A stretch of 64,000 nt of DNA from Squalus acanthias (taxonomy: Eukaryota). The translations under genes and the position numbers were made by a program. The stretch's first letter is position 1. Every line of letters begins with the position of its first letter. Where the stretch lies: contig CM059432.1 of NCBI GenBank assembly GCA_030390025.1, positions 25,608,001 through 25,672,000 on the forward strand, written 5' to 3'. Below the pieces are notes generated by a model. It saw only the letters and a list, made by a program, of their open reading frames with translations. It did no database searches and was not told the DNA's origin. Shown here in pieces: positions 1,233-57,459 of the stretch.

Positions 1233-3643
1233 TTTGCAACCAAGTCCTCCCGGGCAGTCTCTGAAGACATTCAATGCAGCAGCATCAGAGGCGCCGTTCA
1301 GACCTAATACTACTACTACTACCTTCATCACATCTCCATTGTAATAGTGGACCTGCAGCTGATAGTCAGCTATCCACTTGTGCTCCCGTCAGGTTTCACT
1401 GGAGTGTGTCACACCAGGCGTGCTTCATGTCAGTAGAGGGTTAAACTAGCTACAGCGTTTCAAAATGGCATTACAGAGCCAATTTAGAGCTTGTTAAGGG
1501 CTTTAATGGCCTCTCCCGCCTCTTGAAGGCGGGACGGAGTCAGGAACCCCGCGACTGATTCTGTCAAAATTGCGTGGAGGCGGGATGGAGTTGGGATGGG
1601 GTCGGAAACCCCGACCCTGCAAATTTAACCCCCCACACGCCTCCAAACCCGACTCCATGGGTCATTCAAAATCCAGCCCATAGAGTCATAACGGCACAGA
1701 AGGAGGCCATTCGGCCCATCGAGTCCGTGCCGGCTCTCTGTAGAGCAATCCAGTCAGTCCCATTCCCCCACTCTATCCCTGTAGCCCTGCAAGTTTATTT
1801 CCCTCAAGTGCCTATCCAGTCTCCCCTTGAAAACATTGAGTGTCTCCGCTTCCACCACTTCCGTCGGCAGCGAGTTCCAGGTCCTCACCACTCGCTGCGT
1901 AAAAAAGTTTTTCCTCACGTCCCCCCTGTATCTCTTGCTCAAAACCTTAAATCTGTGTCCCCTAGTCCTTGTACCATCAACTAGTGGGAACAGCCTTTCC
2001 CCGTCTAGACTATCCAAACCCGTCATAATCTTGTACACCTCTATCAAATCACCCCTCAACCTCCTTTGCTCTAATGAAAACAAATCCAGCTTCTCCAACT
2101 TGTCCGTGTAGCTAAGATCCCCCATCCCCGGAACCTCTATTTAAGAAACTCAAGATCCCATATGCTTTGCTAACCACTCTCCCAATATGTCCTGCCACCT
2201 TCAGGGACCTATGCACATTAACTCCCAGGTCCCTCTGTCGCTGCACACTCTTCAAAACTGTGCCATTAAGTGTATATTGTCTCTCCCTGTTCCTTCTGCC
2301 AAAATGCATCACCTCACACTTCTCTGTATTAAATTCCATCTGCCACTTGTCTGCCCATTCTGCTAGCCTTTCTATGTCCTGTTGTAGTCATTTGATATCA
2401 TCCTCACTATTTACCACACCCCCAAGTTTGGTGTCATCGGCAAATTTAGAAATTCTACTCTGTATTCCAATATCCAGGTCATTTATATATATCAAAAACA
2501 GCAGTGGCCCCAGCACTGACCCTTGGGGAACACTACTGTCTACCATCCTCCAGTCAGAAAATTCCTTATCCAAGCTGGCACTGACCCACCTATTCCATGA
2601 ACCTCTATTTTGTTCACCAGCTTTCTATGTGATACTTTGTCAAACGCCTTCCTAAAATCCATGTGGACAACATCCATTGAATTCCCTTCATCGATCCTCC
2701 CTGTTACTTCATCAAAAAATTCAATTAGATTAGTCAAACATGATCTGCCTTTTACAAATCCATGTTGGCTCTCCTTAATTAGCTTAAACCTCTCCAAATG
2801 CCCGTTAATTTTTTCCTTGATTATCGTTTCTAAAATTTTACCCACCACTGATGTTAAACTGACCGGCCTGTAGTTACTAGGATTGTCCTTACACCCTTTC
2901 TTGAACAATGGTGTCACATTTGCCACTTTCCAATCCTCAGGCACCTCCTCCGCATCTAGGGAAGATTGGAAAATTATGGCAAGCCCTTCCGCTATCTCCT
3001 CCCCCAATTCCCTTAGCAATCTGAGATGCCAGCCATCTGGACCAGGTGACTTATCCACTCTAAGCATACCCAGCCTTTCTAGTACATCCTGTCTATCAAT
3101 TTTCACCCCTTCCATTGCTTCTACTTTTTCCGCTGCTACTGATATTTTGTCAGCATCCACCTCATTAGTAAACACCAATACAATGTACTCATTCAGTATT
3201 CTAGCCTTGCCCTGCACCTCTAAGCATATAAAACCTTCTTTGTCGCTAATAGGCTCCACCCCGCCTCTTAATACCCGCTTACTGTTTACATGCCGGTAGA
3301 ATATTTTTGGGTTCCCTTTTATGTTAACCGCCATTCTACTCTCATATTCTCTCTTTGCCAATCTTATTTTCATTTTCACTTCCCCTCTCAACTTATTGTA
3401 TTTGGTCTGGTTCTTCCTTGAAGAATTTACCTGACATGCATCATACACCCTCTTGTTTTGTTTCATCATCTTCTCTATCTCCCTCGTCATCCAAGGAGCC
3501 CTTGCTTTGGTTCCCTTACCCTTCCCTCTTGTTGGAATGTACCTAGCCTGTACTTGGAACATCTCTTCCTTAAAGATCACCCATTGTTCCGTTACAGATT
3601 TTCCTGTCAGTCTTTGGTTCCATTTTACTCTGGCTAGATGCAC
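895..3643 (-). mobile_element. CR1 LINE 3' portion (RT and 3' tail) with internal deletions; tail interrupted by a MITE
   Basis: [53 protein letters not shown] motifs; CATAGAGT tail repeats. Confidence 0.9.
908..1679. mobile_element. Harbinger-type MITE containing (GA)n and poly-G tracts
   Basis: Perfect 13-bp TIR GGGCTGGATTTTG/CAAAATCCAGCCC; flanks AGA/ATA fit a mutated 3-bp TSD. Confidence 0.75.
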
Positions 3644-6050
3644 AAGGCAATCTCATAGGTAATGGCAGCGAAATAGCAGAAATACTGAATAGTCACTTTG
3701 CCTCAGCATTTACCAGGGAGACTAACAAGATGGACATGACATTAGAAGAAGAGATCAAAAAAGATATCAAGACATTTAAGATCGAAAGGGGGAGATAATT
3801 GATAAACTAATCAAACTTAGAGAGGATAAAACCCCTGGTCAGTATGGATTGCATCTGCGCATATTAAAAGAAGTGAGGGAAGAGATAGCAGAGGCACTAT
3901 TACATATATATAACAATTTATTACAAAGGAATAATGCCAGGACTAGTGGACAGCTAATGTGATTTCTATATGTAAAAGGGGAGATCGAACAAGTCTAGGG
4001 AACAATAGAACAGTTAGCTTAAAGTCAGTGGTAGGAAAGATAATGTAGTCTTTATTCAAATATGTCAGCTAGAAATTGAAAATATAATAAAGAGTAGTCA
4101 GCACAGATTTCAAAAGGGAAAGTCATACTTGACCAACTTTATTGGCTTCTTTGAAGTAACAAAGAGTAGACAAGGGTAATGTAGTGGATGTAATATTTTT
4201 GGATTTTCAAAAGGCCTTCTATAAGTAGACTCATGACTAAGGTCAGAGCATGTGGAGTCAGGGGCAGGTAGCAGAATGGATAGCAAGCTGATAACAGAGT
4301 GTAGAGGTTAAGGGTAGCTACTGTAAGGGGTCACGGTACTGGTGCGAGGTGAGGCCTTCGTTGCCTATACTATTGCTTGCTCTGGTCTCCGGCCAGACTT
4401 TTGCAATAAGCACCTGTGAGTGGTTCGACCCACTCGCCCTTACGGTTCTGACACCTGGACTTAGATGCAAGGAGCAGTAATGCAGAGAAAAACTCAAATA
4501 GACCCGGTTGAATAGCACGAAATGAATATCTTTATTGCATGGCGTCTAAGATCATGAAATACATGTCATAGGCGCAGATCAAAGAGAGTACAAGTATACA
4601 CACGTTCATAAAACTTGGTCTATGGAAATGAGGAACACACGACACATCGAAAAAGGGGGAACACATTATACATTAACCTTAGAAAAACCACCCTCCCTCA
4701 ATATACCTAAACTACGTCTGGATTTGTAGGATCGGAAAAACATGCTCACCACTCGGCTCACTTCGGAACTTTAAAGTGAGGCACTCAGCTCGTTTCGCTG
4801 CACCGTCTGACTGTCACGTGTTTGGAAGGGTTTCTGCACCCCACTTGTTTACTCTCGCTGCCGCGAAAGGTAAGCCAGACTCCCTGATGTCATGAAGCAG
4901 TCGATGGACTCAGACCGGATCGTGCAGCAATCCGTAGAATTCAAAGGAAACAGTACATGTAGTAGTCGGTAGAATTCAAAGATGGGTTCTGTCGTTATAT
5001 CTTCTGGCGCGGTCGGGGTTTACTGACCGTGGCGGCACGTGGAATTTCTTCTCGTCTTTCTTCTCGTCACTCGGGCCTCCGGGTCCGGACACCGTTTACC
5101 GACACTCGGGATGGTGTACCCTGTTACTTGCCCTGTCGAGGCGGCTCGTTCCGATTGAGCTCCACCCAACACTCGAATAACCGACCAGCACGGCTAAGAG
5201 TCAAGAGTCAAGAGAGTCCAGCAAGAGCTTCAGGAAGAGTCAAGAGTCAAGAGAGAGGCCAGGAAGCGAGAGAGCGAATGGACATTTGTCCTCTATAGTT
5301 ATACTGTTATGTCGGCCTTATCTCCCGCTCATATCTAAACGTTTATTCTTTGTGTGATTTTTGGCGCCCAAAACTCCCAGCATGGGGCGATTATCTTCTT
5401 AACGGGTTTCGGTAGTACCTGAAACTGGCCAACTATCCGTTAATACCTTCTCCATTGTTGAGCCAGCCAGGATTGTAGAATTCGCAATATATCGCGATTT
5501 TATTAATAAGGAGAAAAACACATAGTTTCGTTCAAACAGCTTTTATTTCAGCAGAATGCTGTCAGGTTTTCAAAGTGGACACAAGCAGCTTGTAAAATGG
5601 CCGCCGCACCTCGTGACAGAACATTCTAGACTTTTCGACAGGCAGACAAGATGGCGTTCCAATAAACATTTGTGCAAGATCGATTAAGACTCAGCACATT
5701 GAAGATAATACACGAGACATCATGGGTTTACAGTATACACATAAATACTGAAATCGGTCTCCCAGGTACGAATAAAAGCTATTGTACCAAGCAATCAAGA
5801 ACCCATCCAAAGACATTAATATGTAAAATCCCAACGACTCTACGATGAGAGAGCCGTTAGCGGGTAGTTACAGAAAACACTTGGAAGCCCCAAAACCCCT
5901 CCAGGGAGAACACCGACCGATTAATCAATGGGAAAAATATTAACAGGTACTCAGACAATTACGAGTAGCCCCGAAACCCATTAAAACGAAGATCACCCTA
6001 TACAAGACATTTGAGCGCCAAACCCTAACAAAAGGAAAGACATTAAGGTT

Positions 6051-6081
6051 GGGCGGGAAACGGAAGATTTTGCACTATAAT
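6051..6081 (+). promoter_or_regulatory. Putative LTR core promoter (GC box + TATA-like)
   Basis: GGGCGG at 6051 and TATAAT at 6076; the GGGCGGGA...CACTATAA arrangement recurs in solo LTRs at about 21970-22000 and 58545-58575; YY1-type AAAATGGCCGCC/AAGATGGCG motifs lie upstream (about 5594, 5648). Confidence 0.5.
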
Positions 6082-6899
6082 TGCAAGCTCCAAACCGTCC
6101 ATCTCGCTCCTATTCAGTTGACTCTTATCTTGCTGGTGTTTATCCTCGTGGCTGCTCTTGACTCGCCGTCTTGTTCCTGCTTGCCTCGTGTCTCTTTTCA
6201 AAAGACTGTTGAACTTTATGATCCGCTCGAATCTACCTCGTGTCGTGTCGCGAAGACCTGTGTAGAACTGGGCTCTGAAGCCTTGAAGCGGGCGCACCAT
6301 CCCGATAAGTCGGTAAACGGTGTTGGAACCGAAGGCCCGAGATGAGATGAGATGAGATGAGATGAGAAGAGAAGAAGACCATACTTATCGCCACGGTCAG
6401 TAAGCTCCGACCGCGCCTGTAGGTCAAATAGACACTTTCCTTGCCCAGGAAGACTCTTCTTTGAGTTTTATCGAACCGGTGTGAGGGCACAGGAAGACTC
6501 TTTTTTTGAGTAGTGTCGGAACTCCGAGGACAACACAGATCTTCATGACAGCAGACGTTCCAGCCTGCTAGCCGGAGCAGAAACGAGTAAACAAGTGGGG
6601 CCCGGAGACCCCCTGATCGACACGTGGGTGCTGCGGTGAAAAACATCCGATCAGAGTTTTCGGAATTCTCCGAGTTATCACGAGTGGTGAGCATGAGTCT
6701 CGAATCCTACGAATCTAGCTTAGGACAGATATTGATAGGGGAGGGTTTTAAGTATTAAGGATAATTGTAATGTGTGCCCCCATTTACGATGTGTCGTTCG
6801 TTCCTCGTTTCCCTGAAATTAGTTACATAACTGCGTGTAAGATTGTACTGTCATTAATCTGTGCTTATGACATGTATTTCATAATCTTAAATATTATGC

Positions 6900-6905
6900 A
6901 ATAAA
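6900..6905 (+). promoter_or_regulatory. Putative LTR polyadenylation signal
   Basis: ATGCAATAAAGAT conserved in all related LTR copies, followed by T-rich sequence. Confidence 0.55.
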
Positions 6906-7149
6906 GATTTTCCATTTCGTACCATTCAACCGAGTCTACCTGAGTTTCATCTCCATTATTGCTCTCGCATCTAAGTCCAGTGTCTAGAACCGTAATGGCG
7001 AGTGGGTCGAACCACTCACAGGTGTGTATAGTGCTCCCAGACTGGCTGGAGACCAGAACAGGCAACAAGGCCTAAACCCGCACTAGCACCCGGGCTGCAC
7101 AGAGCCACACGAATCTCACAGGCTGAGAGACAAAAAACCCTTACAGAAA

Positions 7150-8958
7150 ATGGCGACCGCGGCAGGACACTGGCAGCGAGAGGGTAGTGTTTTAGACTTT
7201 GGTGTGAATGTACGAAATGTTATGCAGGAAAAGATAGCAGATTATGTGTTCGGAAAGGTAAATTTAACTAAGAAATGGATAAGTGACCTGTTAGCGGATA
7301 AGTGTCCACTAGAGGCAGCCGAGAGGTGGACAGATAGTAAGGAACATAAAAAGACAGTCGAGAAAGCAGTCTGGTTAATGTGTTACAAAAGGCAGGTCCA
7401 GATTTCAAACCAGATCATTACAGCGCAAACAGCTCGGATCAGGCATTTGGAGGAGGAAATGGATGAGAAGGTCTCTGGAGGGGAGTTGCTCATTAGGAAT
7501 TTAAGTGCGCTGCACCGAGAACGCCAGGAAATCACCAGTCACCATAAAGCAAAAATAGATTACCTCGAGTGCCAGGTCACTGAGGCAAAGTTAAGTGAGG
7601 GCAGACTAAAGGAACGATGTGCCCGCCAAGCTGCCCAAATAAGAGCCCAGGAAGAGAGCTTAACGGGGGTTAGGGCGGCATATAAGATGGCCCTTGAGGA
7701 TAAATTTCAGGGGACCGATCATAGCGTCTGCCAAAAGGAGATAGAGCACCTTAAAAGGGCCGTGAACAAAGCGCACGGCATGGTGTGCCTTATCAGTCCG
7801 TCAGCACACCAGCCACTAGTAGATGAGGAGTCTCAGAAATTCCCACCAAGTAAAGCAAAGGAAGTATTAGCCACTACGCCCTCCGCGCCACCCAGCTATT
7901 TGGAAACCTGGGTAAGGGAGGAAGTAGTAGAAGAAACGAAAGAGCCCACTGAGGAAGAAGTAGAAAAGGGACCGTTGTGTCCAGTTACGGGTATAAAAAG
8001 GGGCCCAAACAGAAACGGTGGGGAGGAACCAGGGGATCTCCTCAACCAGCTTGTGTTGCCTCACAGCTCACACCAGCTGAGAGTTATGATAAATCACGTA
8101 CGGAAGCTGACCGAGTCAGACGACCCTTCCGTACATTTCAGAGAAGTTGAGCAAACCGCAGCCATTAACGGCTGCGACGATGGGGAAACAGCAAAAATGC
8201 TGTTATTTTCGTTAGGCAGTTCAATCCTTCAGTGTCTCTCGGACGAGAGCAAGAGGGGAACCAAGACCTATGAGGCATTAAAAAATGAGGTCCTAGAAGT
8301 ATTGGGGACGGACGATGAAGGTCCGTTTGTTAGAGTGGGACAGACAGTGCAGATGGAGGGAGAACCCCCGAAGGTTTTTGCCGACAGGCTGTGGCCAGTA
8401 TATCAGCGCAGCTGTCCAGGTGCGCCAGAGCGCGACGCTGTGGACGGCGTCGGTTTAACTCATTGGCTCAGGTGTATAGTAGCCAACAGTTTGCCAGCCG
8501 TCAGAGAGCAGGCAAAAGCATGGTTTGATCCCACTGACCCCAACATTACGGAAGAGTCGGTCTTAAATCGACTCACGGTAGGATACCGTAATATAAGGGG
8601 TATGGGAACACGTCCCCTTAAGGGAAAAGTATATGAGGTACGACCCGCAGCCCCGGCTCAAAAGGAGTGGCATCAGGAGGGTAACCGCGCCCCGCAGGCA
8701 AGTAATGCTTGTTACGGGTGTGGGAGGACAGGGCACTGGCGCAAGAACTGCAGGAACCCTTGGAAGGATTCCAGGGATAAAAATCCCGCAGCCCGAGCCC
8801 AGATGCCTGTCTCTGTTAGGGAAGCTAGTGCACCCACCCCTCCCGACGACCTCGAAACAGTGTTGGGAGCCATGCGCAACTTTATGAGTGCACATGGAAG
8901 AGTGGCGGTTGCTACCGGCCCCGTAGGTGCCGCAGGCCCGTCTAACCATACCCAATGA
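7150..8958 (+). CDS. gag: Gag polyprotein (602 aa)
   Basis: Open ORF with strong Kozak (AAAATGG); N-terminal coiled-coil-like region; PSAPPSY late-domain motif (7879-7899); single CCHC knuckle CYGCGRTGHWRKNC (8710-8751). Confidence 0.92.
   Translation: MATAAGHWQREGSVLDFGVNVRNVMQEKIADYVFGKVNLTKKWISDLLADKCPLEAAERWTDSKEHKKTVEKAVWLMCYKRQVQISNQIITAQTARIRHLEEEMDEKVSGGELLIRNLSALHRERQEITSHHKAKIDYLECQVTEAKLSEGRLKERCARQAAQIRAQEESLTGVRAAYKMALEDKFQGTDHSVCQKEIEHLKRAVNKAHGMVCLISPSAHQPLVDEESQKFPPSKAKEVLATTPSAPPSYLETWVREEVVEETKEPTEEEVEKGPLCPVTGIKRGPNRNGGEEPGDLLNQLVLPHSSHQLRVMINHVRKLTESDDPSVHFREVEQTAAINGCDDGETAKMLLFSLGSSILQCLSDESKRGTKTYEALKNEVLEVLGTDDEGPFVRVGQTVQMEGEPPKVFADRLWPVYQRSCPGAPERDAVDGVGLTHWLRCIVANSLPAVREQAKAWFDPTDPNITEESVLNRLTVGYRNIRGMGTRPLKGKVYEVRPAAPAQKEWHQEGNRAPQASNACYGCGRTGHWRKNCRNPWKDSRDKNPAARAQMPVSVREASAPTPPDDLETVLGAMRNFMSAHGRVAVATGPVGAAGPSNHTQ
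7151..7168 (+). promoter_or_regulatory. Primer-binding site, tRNA-Arg(UCG)
   Basis: TGGCGACCGCGGCAGGAC is the reverse complement of the 3' 18 nt of vertebrate tRNA-Arg(TCG) (...GTCCTGCCGCGGTCG-CCA, recalled sequence); lies 5 nt after the LTR end. Confidence 0.88.
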
Positions 8959-11900
8959 CTAGAGCCCGCGCAGCCCGTCTACCTGTGTCCGCTCAGCTAT
9001 GATGCGTGGAAGCGACCCTTGGTGGAGATGGAGGTAGAGAAATTGAAGGGTAGTTATTTGTTGGACACGGGAGCTTCTTGCACCGTGATTCATACAGATA
9101 GCCCTTTTGACTCACTGCTATCTACCAAGGTCCCATTCACATTAGCGGGGTTCACGGGAAAAGAACAGGCTGGCGCATTCTCCTTTCCGCTATCCATTCG
9201 TTTGGGAGCACTTCACATCAAGTGGAAGTGCATATTGATGGAATGGCAGGAGGGGGGTGGAAGAGGTATCCTCGGGTCCGATCTCCTATCAGGGCACGGG
9301 ATCCTCGTGGACCTCAGAAATCATTGTCTCTGGGGGGCTAAGAGTGAAAAAGGCGAGGTAGTGGTAATTCCGGGGGAGGAAGAAACAGGGGTCCTGTGTA
9401 CCATGCAGCCATCCGGAGGCTACGACCTCGGGCTCATGGTAACAGATGTCCCAACGGACATGCAAGCGTACGTGTCAGATAATATGCACGCGTTTGCAAC
9501 CCACAAGCACGATTGTGGGAGGGTTACCGGGTTTGAGGTCAGCGTAGATGGGGACCCCATGACCCGGCCCCAAAAACAGTATAACTTCCCCAAAGAAGCA
9601 GAACCCGATATGGAGACAGCAATGTCCTCCTTGGTGCAGCAGGGCGTGTTGAGGCCGATAGCCACACACGTGAACTCCCCATTATGGCCGGTTAGGAAGC
9701 CAGATAATTCGTGGAGGGCCACGGTGGACTACAGAGTCCTTAACAGTAACATTCCCGCCTGCGCGCCCACGGTAGCAGCAGTTGCTGACCTAATAGGGAG
9801 TATCCCAGCGTCCGCGACCACGTTCACGGTGCTGGATATCTCGAACGGTTTTTGGTCCATCCCGCTGCGGCGAGAGGACCAGTACAAGTTTGCCTTTACT
9901 TTCAAAGGACAACAGTACACATGGAACTGTCTGCCACAGGGTTTCCACAATAGCCCCAGTATTTTCCATCAGTGTATGGCAGGAAGTTTAAAGGAGTTTA
10001 GTCAGCCCAATCAGATAGTGCAGTACGTGGATGATTTGCTCCTATTTACGGACTCAAGGGAGGAGCATGGACCACTGCTGGCCGAGTTATTGGAGCTGCT
10101 AGCGAGAAAGGGTTTTAAAGTAAATCCTAAGAAAGCGCGTATCGGTCAGCAGGAAGTAAAATTCCTGGGGCTGACCATTCGCGCTGGGGAAAGAGCCATA
10201 GATAAGGCTAGGAGGGAGTCGGTGCAAGAGTTACCGATTCCCAACACCATAAGGGGTGTGAGGTCCTTCTTGGGACTGACCGGTTACTGCAGAGATTTTA
10301 TCGAAGATTATGCGGCCGCAGCGGCGCCGCTCCTCCGACTCCTCCATAAGTGAGTGGAGTGGTCTTGGGACGAGGGCTGCCAAGCAGCCTTCGAGAAGTT
10401 AAAAAAGGATCTGCAGACCGCGCCAGCCTTAGGGGCCATAGATGGGGGGAAGGAGTTTTTCCTGGAGGTAGCTGCCAGCGGGGACAGCTTGAGCGCTGTG
10501 CTGCTCCAAGAGCGTCACGGCAAGCTGAGGCCGGTTGTCTATTCGTCCAGGGTGTTAACGGATGTGGAGAGGAGTTTCTCCAATTGCGAAAGGCACCTTT
10601 TAGCCACGCATTGGGCTGTGAAAAGATCAGCGATCTTCACAGGGCTCTCTCCCATCACTCTCCTCACCCATCACACACCAACTAAGATGCTTTTAGATGG
10701 GAGGATTAAAGATGGGACCGTAAGCAGCGTGCGCATTGCGCGCTGGACCCTTCTTCTTTCCCAGATGGATCTTAGAGTAAAAGGTCTTTGCGAGCCCAGG
10801 CTTGCGGCCAATTTGGTATACCCCGGTACAGCCCACCGATGTTCGGTGGAAGGGGTGTGGGACGTCAACATAGGTTTGCGGGCCGGGATACATCCCACTG
10901 GGCGCGAGATTTATGTTGATGGCTCTAGCACAGTATCTGCTGGCGAACGACTCACAGGGTGTGGAGTTTATGACCCTGCGGCAAACCTTGCCCTGGCGAT
11001 CAAGCTCCCTAGCACCATGAGCGCGCAGCAGGCTGAGCTGTCTGCAGTGGTGTACGTTGTTACCCACCCAGACATTTTCCCAACCACATACACGATTTGC
11101 TCGGACAGTATGTTCACATGTAATTCGTGTACGGAATACCTGGCCATTTGGTCCCGCCGTGGATACACCTCCGCGGACGGGCGACCTTTAACGGTGAAGC
11201 CCTTGCTGAAAAAGATCCTAGCAGCAGTAGGGGAGGAAGGGGAGATTTTCATCCATAAGGTGAAGGCTCACTCCTCCACAGAGCCCCGTGGGGAGGGCAA
11301 CCAGCAGGCGGATGCGCTAGCCAGGGAAGGTGCCCGCAACGGCATTTTCTGGGACCCCTATGGGACCAGACCCATGGCAGCGATCCAAGGCAGGGACGGG
11401 AATCCCGGGAACTCCAGGGTAGCATTGCCCCTAGACCTTAAGACCGTCCAAACCCAGGATCCCGCCCTAAAAGCAGTCATAAAAACCATTGCTGAGGGGA
11501 AGCAAGTAGAGGGTCCGTACAGTACGGCAACCCTCTCAGTTAAGGAAGGCATGCTGTTCCACGAGGAGCAGTGGGTTGTGCCGCAGCAGCACAGGAGGGA
11601 ATTCCTCCAGTTGGCTCACGAGGGACCAGGGGCAGGGCACCCCGGGCCCGAGGTTACCTGGCAACGGGTAGAGCAAGCGGGATGGTGGCCAGGGCTCAGG
11701 GAACAGGTCCGCGAGTTCTGTGCAAACTGTCTCGTGTGCGCTGCAAACAACCCAGACCCCCAGAAAAGGAAAGTGCCCATGGGGCACGTAAGAAGGGTAG
11801 AGGGACCATGGCAGTCGATACAGATCGACTATATAGGGCCCCTGCCCACCACCCAGGGAGGCTATAAATACTGCCTTGTCTTGGTGGATGTGTTTTCCAA

Positions 11901-13485
11901 ATGGGTGGAAGCCTTCCCCTGTCGAACAGCTACGGCACTGGGTACTGCAAAAATCTTGGTCAGGGAAGTGTTCTCGCGGTGGGGACTTCCCCGTTTTGTG
12001 GAGTCAGACCAAGGGAGTCATTTCACCGGCCAGGTGATGCAGAACACCCTCATGCTTTTGGGCATTGAAGGGAAGTGGCACGTAGCACACAATCCCCAGT
12101 CATCCGGGATTGTTGAACGCATGAACCGGACCCTGAAGGAGAAATTGAGGAAAGAGACTAGGAACTCGCCCCAAAAATGGGCGGAAGTTCTGCCTTTAGT
12201 CCTCATGGGGGTCCGGGCCAGTCAGTCAAAAAGTACGGGGTATTCCCCGCACGAGGTGATGACTGGGAGGCTCATGCGAACCCCCACCCATGTGCTAGCG
12301 CCGGTGCTCACTGAGGGTCAGCTTCAAGAGATAAGCAGGGACAAGTTCGCCCAGACCCTCTTGGAGCGCCTGAAGCAGGTTTATGAGCAGGCGGCTGGGA
12401 ACATGGGAAGGCAGCATCAGGGCAATCGCCTGTTGCTGGAACCCCGCAAAACGCGGGAGTGGGAAGTAGGAGACCAGGTCATGGTCAGAAACTACGCCAG
12501 AGTAGGGAGTCTGGATCCACTGTATATGGGACCCTACAACATTGTAGATAAGGCGAGTCCCATGGTATACGCCGTAAAGGTACCTCGGCGCACTAAGTGG
12601 TTCCATGTAAACCAGTGCAAACTGTACAAGCCAGGTGCACAAGGGAAAACCACAGGGGCAAAACCTGCGAGTGGGGACTCGCAGCCCCAGGTAGGACCAC
12701 AAGGCACACAGGCAGGCAAAGCAGCTTGCATCAGGGGAGGAGACATCCTGGAAAATTGTGAAACATTTTTGTGGGGTTGGGAGTCAGATGAGGGAGAGTT
12801 CCCGGAACTCGAGTCAGATGAGGATAGTGATGAGGACGAGTGGGAATCGGGGAACGCAAGGGTCGCCCCCGAATCAGGTATAGGGAGGACAGGGGCTGCA
12901 GATAGAGATCCACACAGGGTGGACACCGAGGCTGCAGGTCCCGAACACAGGAGGGAGGAGCTAGGGGAGGCGGAGCCAGCCGCTGTGAGACCACAGGGCG
13001 TGACGGCGGAAACCTCAGAGCCCGAGCCGCCCGCCTTGAACGTCCTGCCCTCGGGGGAGGTAGAGATTGCGAGGGAAGGGCCGCCTGCTGGGCCGAGCAG
13101 GGCGGTGCCACAAGCTGCTAGTCCCGAGGTCAGTGAGGCGGAGTCAGGGGAGGCGGAGCCAGCGACTGTGGTGGGACCACAGGTCGTCCCGGTGGAAGTC
13201 TCGGAACCCGGTCCGTCGGTCCTGGGATTCCTGCCCCCGACAACTCCTCGTAGGTCCAGTCGAGCACCCCAGCCCAGGAAGATGTGGTCATGTCCACAGA
13301 CTGCCCCAAGGCGCAGGCTTAAGGTTAAAGCAGCCCCGGAAGGGCCCAGTCCCATCGCAGCAGCAACAGGCTGCGGCAGATCAAAGGAAGGGGTCAGTGC
13401 AGCCACAGGCTGCGGCAGATCAAAGGAAGGGGTCAGTGCCCTCCCACCGTCGGGAAGAGCCCGCAGCAGCCTTCTCAGAATTTAA
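8959..13485 (+). CDS. pol: Pol (protease, RT, tether/degenerate RNase H, RNase H, integrase), in frame with gag; one internal TGA at 10351-10353
   Basis: LLDTGAS (PR); LDISNGF, LPQGF and YVDD (RT); tether with EVAAS; IYVDGSS...AQQAEL...SDS...KAH...GNQQAD (RNase H); HHCC plus IDYIGP/SDQGSHF/VERMNRTLK (IN); GPY motif. Confidence 0.93.
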
Positions 13486-13836
13486 AGGGGGCCGCCCTGG
13501 GAACGGGCGGCGCTGTACAGTAATAAGTTTAGGATAAGTTTTAAGTTCATAGTTTAAGTTTAAGTTTCTAGGTTTATAGTTTAAGGTTAAGAATAAGTTT
13601 ATAGTTTTAGATAAGGTTATAAGTTTATAGTTTTAAATAAGGTTAAGTTTGTAGTTTAATTTTAACAGAAAATGGTAAAATGATGGGAGTTTTAGATAGG
13701 TCTAGTTAAAGTTTATTTAGTGAACATTGAAGTTTACGTGAGGCGAGGTCAGGGGACCCGCTCACCCTTCACAAAAGCCAGAGACTCTTGCGAGGCTGGC
13801 TACCTCATTCTATCTGATCACAGGAACCAAGGAAGG

Positions 13837-16188
13837 ATGGAACGAATTCTAGTATTGCTCGCGGCAATCGGATGTGGATTGGCCTATCGAGGCCGCACCA
13901 AGGATGTCATGGTGTTTGGATGCTCCGGGGACACGGCCCCCATCGCGGTGGATGGGACCGGAAGACGGGAGGCTGAGGAGACCACCACCTATTTCCACAA
14001 GGGAAGGTGGCCAGGATGGCTGGGAACGAACTCAACGGAGTATTCCAGCACATCGGGGTTTGCCTACCAAGAGACTTCTTTAATGTGCCCCAAAGTAAGG
14101 ATCATCGCACCCAGGATCAGCGTCACCGTCGGCAAACGGATTTGTTTGACTTGTAATGGGAATGTCCCATTGAGCCGATGGTGGTGGCTGCGAAAGCTGA
14201 GCAAAAACATGAGGAACTCTTCGGTCGAGTGGGAACGACTGGGTAATAATACCCATCGGACAATTACGGGGACAAACGGACAAGTGAGAGTCTGTTGGGA
14301 CAAATGGTGGGAACCGGATGAGGGAATTTATGTATGCATGTGGGGGTCAAAGTACGCTTGCCCCAAAGGCATCTCCATATTTTTCATTAATCAATGGCAG
14401 GATAACGGACAGGGGATGAGGTGGGATGCGAGCACCAGGGGGTGCGGAGCCCCATACTCTTCTATCCCGGTAAATGCCACTGAGCTGATTACGCGCCCAC
14501 GCAAAGCCCCGCCCACGATTCCGGTGGTTCTAGCTGAAGAGGAAGGGTGCCCTAAAACTAGTAAGGGACCCGGGAATGGTTTGGTACTGGTCCCCACAGA
14601 CCAGATATTATTTCAGGGGGTACATTACGCGGTGGCCTCGGTGATTTTAAATCTCACCGAGGTGCGGTTACCAGAGTGGTGCCCCAAAAAGACGGAACAG
14701 TTATATCAGGTCCTGGTGACCAAGATGTTCAGACAATTTTACGAATTCGATTTCGCGGAAATTGATAAAACAAGTTTGTACACTGCACCACATGAAGTTT
14801 TTGATCAAGTGGGGAGACAAAGAAGGGGTGTAGTGAACGACGCGTTCACTGCTTTTAACACGGGTACATCTGTGGTCAACGCTCTAGACAGTGTGGAGCT
14901 GCAGACCCAGATTAATGGTTTAAAGGCGCAATTAAAAGACATTCTAACAGATGAAAACAAGGTGGTTGGGTCGGGTTTACACGAGGACCAAGCCATGACT
15001 CTCCATTTAAAGGAAATTATAGCAGAGCTAGAGAAACATGCAAAGACGTTAAATGCCCTGATTAGGGAAGATCGGAATGCATCCGATCAAGCTGCGCAGA
15101 ATGAGGTGTGCGTGCTTTACGGGGCGTGGTTACTGGGCGAGGGCCGCAGTAATTTGGAGGATTTAAAACAAGGTTTGGTCCCGTCCTGGATAAGTAACAA
15201 ACACCTGCGGGCGCTCCACCCTTTTCAGAACGCATTAAGCCCGTGCCAGCTCAGGTTAGCTTCAGAAGCATACCCAGTCCCCGTGGACTGCGGACGATCA
15301 AACCATACTATCATGGGTATAGTATTACGTATGCCGGTTTTGGGCGACACAGCAAAGCCCGCCCCGGTGTATCGGGTAGAGAACATTGGTGTCATTCAGG
15401 GGGGAGCCCACATTCGCTATGCAGCGGTTCCACCCTACGTCATCCGCTGGGAGCAAACGATGACAGGTACAGATCTCTCTGGTTGTCGTGGCAGGGGAGC
15501 ACACATAATACTGTGTCCCCAGCACTTGAATGCCTTTTTAACACCACAGTGCGGGTTCAGAACGGCTGGCGCCAAGTCCATGAATTGCACCATGGAGGCA
15601 ATGGCACAAGATCATGTGCCTCCGCAGGTAGCATACATCGGGGGTGGAACATATTGTGTTACCACTGCAGCGCAACACTACCAGCATGGAAACCGTAGCC
15701 GGTGTCCGGTGAGTGACAGCAGTTTCTGTTTCAAACCCAGGGCGGAAGTTCAAGTAGCACAACAGCGAATTGTCCCAATCCCTGAACCATCCACTGTTCA
15801 TCTTACAGTAAAAGAGAATTTCACCGACTTGCAGCGATTCGTCGCGCATTTCGGATACATCATTCCCCCTCTCCCTGAACACCTCACCAAGCTTTTGAAA
15901 GCCATCACGGTGTCACAGAAACATTTTTACACACTCGAACAGAAAACTGTCAAAATAGGGACAGACATTCTGGATATAGTAATTCCACCGTGGTGGAATC
16001 TGTTCACCAATATTGAAGTGCCTTCATGGATCAGAATAGCCTCCCACATTTTAGTCGTATGCCAAGTTTTTATTGTAGTGTACCTATTGATCGTACATTG
16101 TAAAAGAGGCAAACGCCTCACCAAGCATGAAAACACGGGAGAGTGGCGAGAACGTTACGTGCGCGTGCACGACGAAAGCACCATGTGA
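13837..16188 (+). CDS. env: Envelope glycoprotein, F-protein-like class I fusion protein with N-terminal Ig-like domain (783 aa from the ATG)
   Basis: ATG in AGGATGG context after candidate acceptor CACAG (13823); signal peptide MERILVLLAAIGCGLA; furin site RQRR (14815-14826); heptad repeat; Cys-rich ectodomain; several N-X-S/T sites; TM WIRIASHILVVCQVFIVVYLLIVHC; short tail. Confidence 0.88.
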   Translation: MERILVLLAAIGCGLAYRGRTKDVMVFGCSGDTAPIAVDGTGRREAEETTTYFHKGRWPGWLGTNSTEYSSTSGFAYQETSLMCPKVRIIAPRISVTVGKRICLTCNGNVPLSRWWWLRKLSKNMRNSSVEWERLGNNTHRTITGTNGQVRVCWDKWWEPDEGIYVCMWGSKYACPKGISIFFINQWQDNGQGMRWDASTRGCGAPYSSIPVNATELITRPRKAPPTIPVVLAEEEGCPKTSKGPGNGLVLVPTDQILFQGVHYAVASVILNLTEVRLPEWCPKKTEQLYQVLVTKMFRQFYEFDFAEIDKTSLYTAPHEVFDQVGRQRRGVVNDAFTAFNTGTSVVNALDSVELQTQINGLKAQLKDILTDENKVVGSGLHEDQAMTLHLKEIIAELEKHAKTLNALIREDRNASDQAAQNEVCVLYGAWLLGEGRSNLEDLKQGLVPSWISNKHLRALHPFQNALSPCQLRLASEAYPVPVDCGRSNHTIMGIVLRMPVLGDTAKPAPVYRVENIGVIQGGAHIRYAAVPPYVIRWEQTMTGTDLSGCRGRGAHIILCPQHLNAFLTPQCGFRTAGAKSMNCTMEAMAQDHVPPQVAYIGGGTYCVTTAAQHYQHGNRSRCPVSDSSFCFKPRAEVQVAQQRIVPIPEPSTVHLTVKENFTDLQRFVAHFGYIIPPLPEHLTKLLKAITVSQKHFYTLEQKTVKIGTDILDIVIPPWWNLFTNIEVPSWIRIASHILVVCQVFIVVYLLIVHCKRGKRLTKHENTGEWRERYVRVHDESTM

Positions 16189-16630
16189 TCGGAAAATGGC
16201 GTCACTCCCGCTCGCCTCGTGCGCCGCGGAAGTTTGTACTCGATCATGATTTTCAGAAACTGTAAATACGTTTGGAACTCGACATGTTTTAAGAGTTGGT
16301 GTTGATTATTTTGGTGATGGTGTTGTAGTTAAAAATGATTGTTTGGTTTTGTTTTGTTTTTCCTTTCCCTAAATAAAAATGTGAATATACAGGTGATACG
16401 AGAGGCATCGGCCTGGTTGCGCCTGGAAGGAAAACAAGTGGTGTAAGTTTAAAGGCAAATGATGCCTACGGTGATAATAAATGTAATTTTCTTGGGAAAT
16501 AAGGACGACGCAAAGACCCTAGATAGTTTAAGTTATGGGATTAAATTTTCTGGATTCGGAGAAAATTGAGATAATATTGCTCGCCACAATATTTTTTTTT
16601 GATACGATAAGCGGAGTTATTCGCATCAAC

Positions 16631-16639
16631 AGGAGGGAC
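16631..16639 (+). promoter_or_regulatory. Polypurine tract (short)
   Basis: AGGAGGGAC immediately 5' of the 3' LTR TG. Confidence 0.7.
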
Positions 16640-18311
16640 TGTAGAATTCGCAATATATCGCGATTTTATTAATAAGGAGAAAAACACATAGTTTCGTTCA
16701 AACAGCTTTTATTTCAGCAGAATGCTGTCAGGTTTTCAAAGTGGACACAAGCAGCTTGTAAAATGGCCGCCGCACCTCGTGACAGAACATTCTAGACTTT
16801 TCGACAGGCAGACAAGATGGCGTTCCAATAAACATTTGTGCAAGATCGATTAAGACTCAGCACATTGAAGATAATACACGAGACATCATGGGTTTACAGT
16901 ATACACATAAATACTGAAATCGGTCTCCCAGGTACGATTAAAAGCTATTGTACCAAGCAATCAAGAACCCATCCAAAGACATTAATATGTAAAATCCCAA
17001 CGACTCTACGATGAGAGAGCCGTTAGCGGGTAGTTACAGAAAACACTTGGAAGCCCCAAAACCCCTCCAGGGAGAACACCGACCGATTAATCAATGGGAA
17101 AAATATTAACAGGTACTCAGACAATTACGAGTAGCCCCGAAACCCATTAAAACGAAGATCACCCTATACAAGACATTTGAGCGCCAAACCCTAACAAAAG
17201 GAAAGACATTAAGGTTGGGCGGGAAACGGAAGATTTTGCACTATAATTGCAAGCTCCAAACCGTCCATCTCGCTCCTATTCGGTTGACTCTTATCTTGCT
17301 GGTGTTTATCCTCGTGGCTGCTCTTGACTCGCCGTATTGTTCCTGCTTGCCTCGTGTCTCTTTTCAAAAGACTGTTGAACTTTACGATCCGCTCGAATCT
17401 ACCTCGTGTTGTGTCGCGAAGACCTGTGTAGAACTGGGCTCTGAAGCCTTGAAGCGGGCGCACCATCCCGATAAGTCGGTAAACGGTGTTGGAACCGAAG
17501 GCCCGAGATGAGATGAGATGAGATGAGATGAGAAGAGAAGAAGACCATACTTATCGCCACGGTCAGTAAGCTCCGACCGCGCCTGTAGGTCGAATAGACA
17601 CTATCCTTGCCCAGGAAGACTCTTCTTTGAGTTTTATCGAACTGGTGTGAGGGCACAGGAAGACTCTTTTTTTGAGTAGTGTCGGAACTCCGAGGACAAC
17701 ACAGATCTTCATGACAGCAGACGTTCCAGCCTGCTAGCCGGAGCAGAAACGAGTAAACAAGTGGGGCCCGGAGACCCCCTGATCGACACGTGGGTGCTGC
17801 GGTGAAAAACATCCGATCAGAGTTTTCGGAATTCTCCGAGTTATCACGAGTGGTGAGCATGAGTCTCGAATCCTACGAATCTAGCTTAGGACAGATATTG
17901 ATAGGGGAGGGTTTTAAGTATTAAGGATAATTGTAATGTGTGCCCCCATTTACGATGTGTCGTTCGTTCCTCGTTTCCCTGAAATTAGTTACATAACTGC
18001 GTGTAAGATTGTACTGTCATTAATCTGTGCTTATGACATGTATTTCGTAATCTTAAATATTATGCAATAAAGATTTTCCATTTCATACCATTCAACCGAG
18101 TCTACCTGAGTTTCATCTCCATTATTGCTCTCGCATCTAAGTCCAGTGTCTAGAACCGTAAGGGCGAGTGGGTCGAACCACTCACAGGTGTGTATAGTGC
18201 TCCCAGACTGGCTGGAGACCAGAACAGGCAACAAGGCCTAAACCCGCACTAGCACCCGGGCTGCACAGAGCCACACGAATCTCACAGGCTGAGAGACAAA
18301 AAACCCTTACA
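16640..18311 (+). repeat. 3' LTR (1672 bp)
   Basis: Direct repeat of 5474-7145, preceded by a purine tract and followed by TSD GGAT. Confidence 0.96.
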
Positions 18312-19383
18312 GGATGTGTATGAATCGTCTCCTCGACTGGTTTTGGGGCCCCCCGAATACTGGCTTAATCACCCGCCAATGTCTCTCTCATTGTTGAGCC
18401 GGGGGTGGGGGGGGTATTTGTGTATTGATGTGTCTAGATGGGTTCAATGATCCTTACTGTGCGTAGGAAACGATTCCAGCACTTATATCATTGCTATTGT
18501 TCAAGATGCGAACGGGTTGCATCCTGTCTTTACAATGTGTACCGAGTATGATCCGATCTCATACTGAATGTATATTCGACGCCATCTTGTCTGCCCACTG
18601 TGTCTCTGGAAGCTTCTGCCACGATGCGCGGCGGCCATTTTACAGGCTTCTGTGTCCTTATTATCAGGGCAGCATTTCGTTTAATAAAAATGATCAATTG
18701 AATCTGCTTCTCTCATGTTATTTTGAATCGCGATAATTGCGAAACTCTACACTACTCAGACTGGCAAAAGGTGGGAAGTGGTGTTCCACAGAGATCGATG
18801 CTGGGACCACGGTTGTTCACAATTTAAATTAATGATTTGGACTCGTGAATCGGAAGTACAATTTCTAAATTTGCAGACAACACCAAATTTGAGGGTATAG
18901 TTAATACAAAGGAAGAATGCGACAAAATACAGGAAGACATTAATAAGTTTGCAGACTGGGTATGTAATTGGCAAATGAATTTCAACATAGATAAGTGTGA
19001 GGTGGTGCATTTTGGTAGGAAGAATAAGGAGGCCACATATTAATTGGATTAATGGGGGGAATTTTGCCGGTGCTCAGGGAGCGGGTTTGGAGGCGGGACC
19101 GGTGGCAAAATTGCAAAGATTGACAGCGGGTCCCTAACCCGCTGTCAACCCGCCTCCAGTCAATCTTCCCGGGTGTCGGGTCCCCGATTTGCGCAGGGAT
19201 CTGACACCTAGCGGCGGAAGAGGATTATAGGCACTTAACTGCTTGTTAACAGGTTGTTAACAGGCAGTTAAGAGGCTTTTTCCAATTTTGGCATGTCTAC
19301 TGCAGGCTTCCCGACGTCCGGACACCACGCCAGGGTAAGTGTGGTGTGCTGTGGGTCTACTGTAATGTTTCTTCATTGATGAC

Positions 19384-20729: not shown

Positions 20730-23160
20730 CCTGATCCCCAATCACACCTGCAAATCCTCCCTACCCCGAAACCCGATCACATCTGCAACACCCTCCCGAT
20801 CCCCGATCATATCTGCAAAACCCTCCCGAGCCCCAATCACATCTGCAACACCCTCCCGATCCCCGATCATATCTGCAAAACCCTCCTGAGCCCCGATCAC
20901 ACCTGCAACACCCCCCGATCCCCGATCACATCTGCAACACCCTCCCCAGCCCCGATCACATCTGAAACACTCTCCCGAGCCCTGATCACATCTGCAGTAG
21001 CCTCCCAAGTCCCGATCACATCTGTAACACACCACCCGATCCCCGATCATATCTGTAACACACCACCTGATCCCCGATTACATCTGTAACACACCACCCG
21101 ATCCGCGATCACATCTGCAACACCCTCCCCAGCCCCGATCACATCTGCAACACCTTTCCCAGCCCCGATCACATCTGCAACACCCTCCCCAGCCCCGATC
21201 ACATCTGCAACACCTCTCCCCTGATCCCCGATCACATCTGCAACACCCTCCCCAGCCCCGATCACATCTGCAACACCTCTCCTGAGCCCCGATCACATCT
21301 GCAATCCCCCACCCTGGATCACGTCTGCAAAATCCCCCAATCCCCGATCACGACTGTAACACCCTCCCCAGCCCCGATCATGTCTGTAAAGTTTCGCAAT
21401 TATCGCGATTCGAAATAACAAGATAGAAGCAGATTCGTTTGATCAGTTTATTTAAACAAAATGCTGTCATGATATAAAGGACACAGAAGCCTGTAAAAAG
21501 GCTGCCGCGCATTGTGGCAGAAGCTTCCAGAAGTACAGTGGGCAGACAAGATGGCGTTTGAATAAACATTTTCAATATAAGACGGGATCATACTCGATAA
21601 GCACTGATAAAGACAGGATGCAACCTGTTTGCATTTGTGACAATAGCAAAAGATATAAGTGCTGGAATCGTTTTCAAGTAAGGACCATTGTACTGGGCAA
21701 TCGAAGGCCCATCCAGACACATCAATACACAAATACCCCCACGGCTCTACAGTGAGAGAGCCATTCTCGGGTGATTAAACAAGCATTCGGGGGCCCCCCA
21801 AAACCAGTCAGGGAGACGATTCATACGATCCTGGCTGGGCCAACAATGGGGAGAACATTAACGGGTAGTTGGCCAGTTTCAGGTGCTACCGAAACCCGTT
21901 AAAGACAAGAATCGCCCCATGCTGGGAGTTTTGAGCGCCAATATTTCACAAAGGACAAACATTAAGATTTGGGCGGGAGATAAGGGAACACAGCACTATA
22001 ACTATAGTGAACAAATGTCCATCGGTCTCTTATTCTCTTGATTCGGGGCCTTATTCTCTTATCTCGCTGCTGACTGCAGAGGGTTTTCGGTGTTCTCTCT
22101 GGACTCTGTTGACTATGTTGGGTGGAGCTCAAACGGAAGGAGCCGCCTCAATGAGGGCCAGTGACCGTGTGCACCATCCCGAGAGTTGGTAAACGGTGTC
22201 TGGACCCGAAGGCCCGAAGAGACGAGACGAGACGAGACGAGAAGAAGAGGAGAAGAATCCACGTGCCGCCGCGGTCAGTAAACCCCGACCGCGCCCAAAA
22301 ATATACGACCCATTTCTTGAACTCTACAGGTTACTGCACGAACTGGTCAAAGACTCTTTTTCGAATTCTACCGGCAACCGGTGTCGGACACAGGAAGACT
22401 CTTCTTCGAACCGTGTCCGAGTTCTGTCGAGTTCTTCATGACAACGGGGATCCCAGCCTGCTTGCCGCAGCAGCGAAGATAAACAAGTGGGGTACAGAGA
22501 CCCCTCAAAACACGTGACAGTCAGGCGCTGCAGCGAAACGAGCCGAGTGCCTCACTTTTAAAATTCTCCGAAGTATCACGAGTGGTGAGCATGTTTCCCG
22601 ATCCTACAAATCTAGATGTAGTGTAGGTATTGATAGGGGAGGGTGGTTTTATTAAGGATAAAGTATAATGTGTTCCCCCTTTTACGATGTGCCGTGCGTT
22701 CTTCATTACCATAGACCAAGCTTTATGAATGTATGTATACTTGTACTCTCGTTAATTTGCGCCTATGACATGTACTTCATGATTTTGGACGCTATGCAAT
22801 AAAGATTTCCATTTCGTACTATTCAACCGGGTCTATTTGAGTTTTTCTCTGCATTACTGCTCTCGCACCTAAGTCCAGTGTTAGAACCGTAAGGGCGAGT
22901 GGGTCGAACCACTCACAGGTGCTTATTGCAACAAGGCTGGCCGGAGACCAGAGCAAGCAATAGTATTAGGCAACGAAGGCCTAACCTCGCACCAGCACTG
23001 TCTGTGATACAAGCACGCCAAAACCCCTTACATGTCTGCAATAAGGCCCCCCGATCCCTGATCACATCTGCAACACCTCCCCAATCATGTCTGCAACACC
23101 TCTCCCAATCCCTGATTGTGTCTGAAACACCCCTCCCGATCGTCTCCAGACCCCTCCCCA
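20730..23160 (+). repeat. About 30-bp minisatellite (CCCCGATCACATCTGCAACACCCTCCCCAG), split by the solo LTR (20730-21384, 23037-23160)
   Basis: More than 20 visible degenerate tandem copies; lies inside a GC-rich MITE-like segment (about 20470-23395). Confidence 0.9.
21385..23032 (+). mobile_element. Solo LTR (1648 bp, subfamily B)
   Basis: TGTAAAGTTTCGC...CCCCTTACA; TSD TGTC at 21381-21384 and 23033-23036; shares blocks with the proviral LTR. Confidence 0.92.
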
Positions 23161-49900: not shown

Positions 49901-51750
49901 GAACATAAGAAATAGGAGCAGGAATAGGCCACTTGGCCCCTCGAGCCTGCTCCGCCATTCAATAAGATCATGGCTGATCTTGGGCTCAAAGCCACTTCTC
50001 TGCCCACTCCCCATAACCCTTCATTCCCTTATCTTGCAAAAATCTGTCTATCTCCACCTTAAATGTATTTAATGACCCAGCCTCCACGGCTCTCTGGGAA
50101 GAGAATTCCACAGATATACGACCCTCTGAGAGAAGAAATTCCTCCTCATCTCAGTTCTAAAAGGGCGACCCTTTATTCTGAAACTATGCCCCTGAGTTCT
50201 AGATTTCCCCACGAGGTGAAACATCCTCTCTGCATCTACCTTGTCGAGCCCCCTCAGTATTTTATATGTTTCAATAAGATCACCTCTCATTCTTCTAAAT
50301 TCCAATGAGTATAGGCCCAACCTGCTCAACCTTTCTTCATAAGTCAACCCCCTCATCTCAGGAATCAACCGAGTAAATCGTCTCTGAACTGCCTCCAATG
50401 CAAGTATATCCTTCCTTGAATAAGGAGACTAAAACTGTACGCAGTACTCAAGGTGTGGTCTCACCAATACCCTGTACAGTTGTAGCAGGACTTCCCTGCT
50501 TTTATACTCCAACCCCCTTGCAATAAAGGTCAACATTCCATTTGCCTTTTTGATTACTTGCTGTACCTGTATGCTAACTTTTTGTGTTTCATGCACAAGG
50601 ACCCCCAGGTCCATCTGAACTGTAGCATTTTGTAATCTCTCTCCATTTAAATAATAATTTGCTTTTTTATTTTTCCTGCCAAAGTGTATAACCTTGCACT
50701 TTCCCACATTACACTCCATCTGCCAAATGTTTTCCCACTCACTTAGCCTGTCTATATCCCTTTGCAGATTCTTTGAGTCCTCTGCACAACTTGCTTTCCC
50801 ACCCATCTTTGTATCATCCGCAAACTTGGCTACATTACACCCGGTCCCTTCATCCAAGTCATTAATGTAGATTGTAAATAGTTGAGGCCCCAGCACCGAT
50901 CCCTGTGGCACCCCACTAGTTACCATTTGCCAACTGGAAAATGACCCATTTATCCTGAGTCTCTGCTTTCTGTTAGTTAGCCAGTTCTCTATCCATGCTA
51001 ATATATTACCCCCAACTCCGTGAGCTCTTATCTTATGCAGTAACCTTTTATGTGGCACCTTATTGAATATCTTCTGGAAATCCAAATACACCACATCCGC
51101 TGGCTCACCTTTGTCCACCCTGCTCATTACATCCTCAAAGAACTCCAGCAAATTTGTTAAACATGCTTTCCCTTTCATAAAACCATGCTGACTCTGCTTG
51201 ACTGCATTATGATTTTCCAAATGCCCTGCTACTGCTTCCTTAATGAAGGACTCCAGCATTTTCCCAACGACAAATGTTAGGCTCACTGGTCTATAGTTTC
51301 CTGCTTTCGGTCTCCCTCCTTTCTTCAATAGGAGTGTTACATTTGCGGTTTTCCAATCCGCTGGAACCTCTCCAGAGTCCAGGGAATGTTGGTATATTGC
51401 AACCAATGCATCCACTGTCTCTGCAGCCACTTCTTTTAAGACCCTGGGATGCAGGCCATCTGGTCCAGGGACTTCTCGTCTTTTAGTCCCATTATTTTAC
51501 CAAGTACTATTTCCTTAGTGATAGTGATTGTCTTTAGTTCCCCCCTCCCTGTGGCTCCTTGATTATTCATTATTGGGATGTTGTTAGTGTCTTCTACCAT
51601 GAAGACAGATACAAAATATTTGTTCAGAGTCTCTGCCATTTTCCCATTCCCTGTTATTAATTCCCAATTCTCATCCTCTAAGGGACCAACGTTTACTTTA
51701 GCTACTCTCCTCCTTTTCATATACCTGTAGAAGCTCTTACTTTCTGTTTT
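49901..51750 (-). mobile_element. CR1 LINE 3' portion, relatively young
   Basis: 333-aa RT ORF (50429-51430) with [17 protein letters not shown]; tail CATAAGAA. Confidence 0.92.
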
Positions 51751-57249: not shown

Positions 57250-57459
57250 TCTATGGAGGATAGATGGCTATCTATGGAGAATAGATGGCTATCTATGGAG
57301 AATAGATGGCTATCTATGGAGGATAGATGGCTATCTATGGAGAATAGATGGCTATCTATGGAGAATAGATGGCTATCTATGGAGGATAGATGGCTATCTA
57401 TGGAGAATAGATGGCTATCTATGGAGGATAGATGGCTATCTATGGAGAATAGTTGGCAG
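57250..57459 (+). repeat. 21-bp tandem repeat (9 full units plus 1 degenerate) encoding SME(D/N)RWL
   Basis: TCTATGGAG(G/A)ATAGATGGCTA units in frame within ORF 56926-57606. Confidence 0.95.

Follow-up and report, generated by a model that had tools for sequence, protein, structure and literature searches.

How an endogenous provirus makes Pol when gag closes with a stop codon and the same reading frame runs on behind it is the question raised by a 64,000-nt stretch of Squalus acanthias DNA (GenBank assembly GCA_030390025.1, contig CM059432.1, positions 25,608,001 to 25,672,000; ‘the window’ here, with positions counted from its first nucleotide and all features of the provirus on its forward strand). 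A preliminary description of this DNA, made from the letters alone, had proposed that Gag-Pol arises by readthrough of a UGA stop codon followed by CUAG. Comparison with relatives, which have the stop in common, leaves this as the best explanation: we put the probability that the gag stop is read through at a type II (UGA-CUA) context at about 0.8, and are equally inclined to place the junction in a class III-like (snakehead-retrovirus-like) endogenous retrovirus (ERV) family of cartilaginous fishes that would use it in this way.

The gag-pol junction

Read directly from the window, positions 8953–8962 are CAA TGA CTA G, as the preliminary description had it. The gag frame (7087–8958) closes at TGA 8956–8958 and the identical frame is open from 8959 to 10353, giving the translation LEPAQPVYLCPLSYDAWKRPLVEMEV...LLDTGAS, with the catalytic Asp of the protease 36 codons past the gag stop; after a second in-frame TGA the pol frame carries on to 13485. 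TGACTAG is found at only one of the 1,099 plus-strand TGA triplets of the window, exactly at the gag stop (3/2,234 for both strands; 1/68 within the gag-pol region), and CTAG makes up 0.25–0.26% of the 4-mers of the window. The remaining two frames have several stops each across the junction. No slippery heptamer lies at the gag stop, the three slippery-type heptamers in 8501–9200 being at 8622, 9102 and 9156. The coincidence of heptamer and gag stop is confirmed as real and beyond chance.

UGACUAG at 8956–8962, the proposed readthrough site, begins with one of the two hexamers (UGACUA or UGACGG) that define type II sites in the Beier-Grimm scheme (PMC13517186), and functional coding sequence follows in frame behind a stop whose position is kept. 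That UGA-CUAG is a leaky context, part of the original proposal, is well documented: Sindbis virus (SINV) and o’nyong-nyong virus (ONNV) use UGA-CUA, and the full heptamer gives efficient readthrough in four mammalian genes, OPRL1, OPRK1, MAPK10 and AQP4, as seen in HEK-293T cells, reaching about 31% at most, in OPRL1, against 1.5% with just UGA-CUA (PMC4132726).

In the mechanism that we propose, most ribosomes on the full-length RNA would halt at the UGA and release Gag. At a few per cent of them a near-cognate tRNA would insert an amino acid at the UGA and decoding would continue in frame, and the minority Gag-Pro-Pol product would set the Gag:Pol ratio. CUAG after the stop would give basal leakiness, which a long stem-loop 9 nt downstream would probably raise in the manner of alphaviruses.

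Conservation of the gag stop among relatives

Three clusters of Gag relatives (55, 46 and 35% identity) share their last alignment column with the Gag of the window. Seven of their eight members, skate included, end at the position of the window’s gag stop, and the eighth (P0124) ends early, in unrelated sequence. The other in-frame TGA (10351–10353), where the reverse transcriptase (RT) ends, has no CUAG context and was absent from the preliminary description. Across gag, pol and env no further break was found in the provirus, and all 22 Pol relatives tested run across this TGA without interruption, so we regard it as a private lesion of the window copy. With relatives that end at the first TGA and cross the other, the gag stop looks, from these protein alignments, like a family trait and not a lesion; given the extra stop in RT, what is said here about readthrough concerns the signal of the family and not the window copy.

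A Gag profile search also bears on fused gag-pol forms, no search for longer proteins having been run with Gag as query. It returned 39 matches at E up to 1e-10, three of which exceed 1,000 aa and match the zinc knuckle only; most are fragments, so that they are weak evidence against fused forms.

At the nucleotide level, contigs of four public runs (four organism labels, four studies; 4 of the 22 runs listed for the junction, none of them RNA, which has no bearing on expression) were aligned to 8680–9320 at 80% likeness. Rare variants are lost in contigs, and the window’s own source may be one of the runs; the figures below refer to the 40 of 97 variants and 24 of 73 loose ends that were listed. 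None of these variants falls in 8948–9017 (P 0.007 under uniform placement), while 14 fall in 8700–8947, 13 in 9018–9184 and 13 in 9185–9300, a flanking density of 5.6–11.2 per 100 nt. One contig piece of run X7 is identical to the window over 8902–8978. Loose ends gather before 8955 in three of the four runs (X1, X7, X16) and behind 8990 in three (X7, X9, X16), two divergent pieces, differing at 14 and 26 letters, start at 8953, and at one loose end behind 8990 codons are changed with amino acids kept (by eye). These positions indicate that divergent subfamilies part from the window copy at two points, just before the stop and 32 nt behind it, and together with the variant test they delimit a nucleotide-conserved island at 8955–8990 that starts at the gag stop.

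Predicted RNA structure downstream of the stop

Folding of the roughly 150 nt behind the stop, which the preliminary description had put forward as a check, gave nothing of note: the 155 nt after the gag stop are not unusually stable (z −1.4), and folds of 40–150 nt are no more stable than those of shuffled sequences. Only a longer folding window yields a structure, one extended stem-loop of 209 nt (8968–9176) with a 9-nt spacer after the stop, which is the candidate stimulator. Its basal helices (8972–8975/9168–9171 and 8982–8987/9153–9158), in which the conserved island pairs with 9153–9171, have pair probabilities of 0.99–1.0 in all six folding windows. Of the 13 listed variants in 8959–9184, two disrupt a predicted pair where about 5 would be expected to do so (P about 0.03). 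An alternative 9-bp helix (8982–8990/9063–9071) was discarded, its pair probability being 0 in the longer fold. A crude search for two-stem pseudoknots after the stop gave 261 combinations, none clear; the minimum-energy fold is the stem-loop, from a folding program that cannot represent pseudoknots.

The predicted 9-nt spacer lies within the 8–12 nt of alphavirus stimulators, which raise readthrough 3- to 14-fold, and equals that of eastern and western equine encephalitis viruses (EEEV/WEEV; PMC3159437). Long-range stems are likewise predicted past the stops of four other retroviral sequences in our comparison (L081, L090, L002 and L084), so that such a stem is not in itself specific. We give about even odds that the stem-loop at 8968–9176 stimulates readthrough. 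The most stable 200-nt fold of gag-pol (z −6.3) sits in RT (10066–10265), away from the junction.

Relationships of the element

The affinities of the element were addressed with a quick RT tree of 66 sequences, 32 of which entered an approximately unbiased (AU) test; foamy virus and lokiretrovirus sequences were outside this tree. The window element falls outside a class I clade (100/99) to which L090 and the gammaretroviral references belong; with L081, bird ERVs and elements of frog and coelacanth it forms an open fork. Placement in class I was rejected (p 0.031), placement beside L081 was not (p 0.12). The separation from gamma- and epsilonretroviruses drawn at the outset has thus held, in the tree as well as in the signal (UGA-CUA, not UAG-G), and our data support the view that the element belongs to neither genus.

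L081 (10,688 nt) was the best match in the viral_contigs collection (37%, E 5e-84). Its junction is TAG-GGC, the one that PMC13517186 gives for snakehead retrovirus (SnRV), with a zinc knuckle 82 aa before the stop, as in the window, and DTG 32 aa after it; the Gags of the two show weak similarity (E 3e-6) in a coiled-coil-like stretch. Env gave a collinear 409-aa alignment to an Env of SnRV type, at 20% identity and an E of 2.5 that is not significant. As in SnRV, gag and pol are in frame with one stop between them. On these sequence comparisons the element resembles SnRV, with their sister grouping left as an open fork in the tree. SnRV-related ERVs are known from elephant shark (PMC4422223) and form the clade Huo (PMC6001957, PMC8922424).

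The viral_contigs collection gave no match to the window protein or to the Gag alignment, and reference-type retroviruses only with the Pol alignments. Searches of metagenome_contigs returned at least 80 loci; among those listed, a retroviral RT motif was present only in L001 and L002, which are one sequence. This distant retrovirus-like element (L001:159/L002:1280; about 33% identity) has an in-frame TAG-CGC gag-pol junction, which is another context outside types I–III.

Two other affiliations were considered and dropped. Lokiretrovirus identity, our first guess, was given up on the RT motif only, compared by eye (NCLPQGF in the window, NRCPFGY in the lokiretrovirus passages compared); the dual RNase H (tether plus RNase H) of the window pol is common to all retroviruses and therefore not diagnostic of lokiretroviruses. 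Foamy virus Gag is not known to have a zinc knuckle. A foamy-type layout does not fit either, as gag and pol of the window share a frame, a zinc knuckle is present and the first Met lies inside the protease, where foamy virus pol has a separate start (PMC8278194).

Evidence against readthrough and alternative explanations

Several points count against readthrough of the gag stop. The Gag and Pol relatives are known as proteins only, which hides their stop codons and contexts, and the coelacanth gene model P0006 is unbroken from capsid into protease, a continuity for which a predicted intron, or a sense codon in place of the stop, may be responsible. Among the run contigs, 57 of the 97 variants and 49 of the 73 loose ends lie outside those considered, depth dips near the gag stop, and none of the listed pieces spans the stop with 31 letters on each flank, so minor variants at the stop are possible. 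The window copy alone cannot yield full Gag-Pol from one readthrough event. As to the stem-loop, an upstream control region gave P 0.05–0.11 in the variant test (0.6 for the downstream control), its stability ranks 6th of 61 windows along gag-pol (z −3.7), and no two-sided compensatory change was seen among the variants listed. The UGA junction of Tca2 of Candida gave no readthrough in a reporter, and a minor promoter lies there (PMC2194720).

Such a promoter would also suit an alternative in which Pol is made, as in foamy viruses, from a separate RNA, through an internal promoter or a splice that removes the stop, with the TGA an ordinary terminator and CTAG kept for the protein; we consider this unlikely. 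The best solved-structure matches of RT are the entries Peptidase A9/RT and Pr125Pol, which we take to be foamy. The first Met after the gag stop (codon 24, nt 9028) is in a good Kozak context, but it falls within the protease domain, whose Pfam match starts at residue 17. The one acceptor-like AG nearby, at about 8819, is upstream of the gag stop, so that splicing to it leaves the stop in place. Some distant relatives (P0012–P0015) have a common Met, 31 residues ahead of the catalytic Asp, whereas the close relatives have no upstream Met in common: the first is 13 residues before the Asp in P0001, 3 before it in P0002–P0004 and P0008, and after it in P0005, variation that leaves no shared internal pol start. 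A separate pol RNA would also leave the rare context, and conservation that starts at the stop, unexplained.

The window copy does carry one nonsense lesion (10351), and P0006 and several lokiretrovirus consensuses are annotated as continuous gag-pol, so the gag TGA might be a mutation of the same kind in a formerly continuous frame. This is largely refuted by the common end point of seven of the eight Gag relatives, spread over three clusters, and by the 22 Pol relatives that all cross the internal stop; moreover, sites private to the window show up as majority variants in the run contigs, and the gag stop is absent from the 40 of 97 listed. Hardly more probable is a bypass of the stop in which the UGA takes up selenocysteine, undergoes A-to-I editing or is avoided by a frameshift or hop. 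A UGA followed by a stem-loop is also seen at some selenoprotein sites (PMC3159437) and a long duplex is predicted close to the stop here, but no selenocysteine insertion sequence (SECIS) family was matched in 5400–18400 at E up to 1 (Rfam; two weak snoRNA matches only), the gag stop lies outside stable helices, and gag and pol share one frame with no slippery heptamer found at the stop.

Other features of the provirus and its surroundings

The provirus is flanked by long terminal repeats (LTRs) of 1,672 nt, identified by alignment to each other: a 5′ LTR (5474–7145; TG...CA) preceded by the target-site duplication GGAT, and a 3′ LTR (16640–18311) with a purine-rich tract before it and GGAT after it. 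The pair differs at 11/1,672 positions (0.66%) with no indel, from which we take the insertion to be young. A primer-binding-site-like (PBS-like) sequence lies at 7151–7168, its role suggested by its position and TGG start; it presumably matches the 3′ end of tRNA-Arg. The first gag-frame ATG (7150), 5 nt past the LTR, overlaps this sequence, and the MAT.. peptide that it encodes opens three of the four aligned Gags. Met residue 25 (nt 7222) is present in all four and may be the true start.

From the first ATG, gag (7150–8958; open reading frame (ORF) and Gag alignment) encodes 602 aa. Its single CCHC zinc knuckle (8710–8751) begins 82 residues before the stop and matches PF00098 at E 0.005, under the Pfam cut-off, with C, C, H and C invariant in the Gag alignment. 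The part of pol from protease to RT (8959–10350; ORF, Pfam and structure matches) is in the gag frame, with the protease DTG at 9064–9072 and the RT core at about 9691–10179. The rest (10354–13485) encodes the tether (a degenerate RNase H), RNase H and integrase. Pfam matches on pol comprise weak protease matches from residue 17 after the stop, RT, tether plus RNase H, and integrase. The integrase has a C-terminal extension of ~280 aa past the SH3-like domain that is acidic and of low complexity, with short tandem peptide repeats and a 126-nt internal duplication (region 12931–13239).

An env-like ORF (13837–16188; 783 aa) carries a furin-like site, RQRR, and is hydrophobic over a stretch at its C terminus, with relatives in skate (75%) and sawshark, the same animals as the named relatives of Gag, which by themselves point to a host among the cartilaginous fishes. 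Its N-terminal part contains an Ig-like D-x-G-x-Y-x-C pattern (by eye) and its second half is weakly collinear with the Env of L093. It had no Pfam match at E 0.01 (F-type PF00523 included) and no informative PDB match; on Env class, Atlas gave a single cluster, unnamed, at 0.84, and the AlphaFold model, built from one sequence, reached a pLDDT of 34, too poor for a structure search. A Niban profile match was rejected, as it arises from a chimeric gene model (P0300).

Elsewhere in the window, older relatives of the LTR comprise one full-length solo LTR at 85.5% (57969–59607), one decayed copy at 66–73% (21393–22960) and inverted fragments just upstream of the provirus (4373–5116). RT-bearing LINE-like ORF fragments are found at 2543–3652 and 50432–51496, both on the reverse strand, and tandem arrays of 30-nt and 21-nt units near 20730–21390 and 57190–57500.

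Comparison with known readthrough systems

In-frame readthrough at gag-pol is a textbook strategy, and of the ‘different recoding solution’ originally claimed one part stands: the CUAG context and the probable stem-loop set the junction apart, while the strategy is that of murine leukaemia virus (MLV) with another signal. The contrast with known retroviruses is also narrower than first described. UGA, shared with the window, occurs without CUAG in retroviruses of aquatic hosts, namely SSSV (salmon swim bladder sarcoma virus; UGAAGA), the zebrafish ERV ZFERV (UGACGA) and a cane-toad ERV (UGAAGU) (PMC13517186), and XtERV-S, a class III element of frog compared by its stop codon only, has TGA at the junction (PMC8278194); the difference here is thus confined to CUAG after the stop and a probable stem-loop 3′ of it. 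L090, which groups with class I in the RT tree, likewise has TGA-AGA.

In SnRV, clade Huo and XtERV-S a single stop separates gag from pol within a common frame, as in the window, but the SnRV stop is UAG-GGC (PMC13517186). In Moloney MLV (MoMLV, a gammaretrovirus) as well as walleye dermal sarcoma virus (WDSV, an epsilonretrovirus), both type III, the stop lies between nucleocapsid knuckle and protease DTG, the same position and purpose as in the window. Gamma- and epsilonretroviruses have UAG-GGR or UAG-GAU in place of UGA-CUA, and in gammaretroviruses a compact H-type pseudoknot follows at 8 nt from the stop (PMC13517186); no pseudoknot was found after the stops of SnRV and WDSV (PMC3835772). 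Seven further junctions in our comparison (L082–L086, L088 and L089) show TAG-G, unlike the window. Closest in signal is the nsP3-nsP4 junction of alphaviruses, where the hexamer UGACUA is shared with SINV and ONNV (Venezuelan equine encephalitis virus, VEEV, has UGA-CGG; PMC13517186, PMC3159437), although these belong to a different virus family and the stem of the window is predicted as a near-continuous rod of 209 nt. The four mammalian genes with the same heptamer use it for C-terminal extensions of cellular proteins and not, as proposed here, as a ratio switch for a polyprotein.

Lokiretroviruses, which share the dual RNase H with the window and differ in RT motif, offer a second instance of the heptamer. 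In the supplement of PMC7947760, at least four of 17 TGACTAG matches are gag stops in frame with the protease (by eye), in the consensuses Loki-Ofa, Loki-Pyo and Loki-Sau and in one preceding the Loki-Cne pol entry. Loki-Bsp has TGA-CTGG, and all four listed ‘Gag protein’ entries end in TGA followed by CTAG (three) or CTGG (one). Most of those pol genes are started farther downstream in that annotation, and other lokiretroviruses are annotated with continuous or offset gag-pol. ‘Readthrough’ and ‘stop codon’ are unmentioned in the main text of PMC7947760 and in the Odin paper.

In the literature searched, subscription journals and Repbase excluded, we came across no description of a retroviral gag-pol junction with UGA-CUAG, and the available parts of PMC12440569, PMC3835772 and PMC5009743 contain nothing on this context. 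A 2026 review on readthrough in animal viruses gives retroviral junctions as UAG of type III or UGA-AGA/CGA/AGU, and describes epsilonretrovirus readthrough as unverified with unclear cis-elements (PMC13517186). Between its gag and pol the element probably has a type II signal, to which an alphavirus-like stem-loop may belong: a familiar strategy with another signal. More tentatively, and with the chances somewhat against it, a full alphavirus-type signal (UGA-CUAG plus stem-loop) may control Gag-Pol in this ERV family of cartilaginous fishes, and the heptamer may do so independently in a subgroup of lokiretroviruses of ray-finned fishes.

The analysis corrects annotation, in that Pol proteins of relatives have been called from internal Mets, losing the start of the protease. 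It also turns the means by which non-gamma retroviruses set their Gag:Pol ratio into a testable question, since a multi-copy, multi-species family with the best-studied leaky context of vertebrates and a candidate stem-loop is a simple case for reporter assays. If the more tentative reading, with lokiretroviruses included, is true, type II readthrough would recur in the deepest branches of retroviruses as a Gag-Pol strategy not listed so far, and UAG plus pseudoknot, as in MLV, would be just one among several signals that can replace one another.

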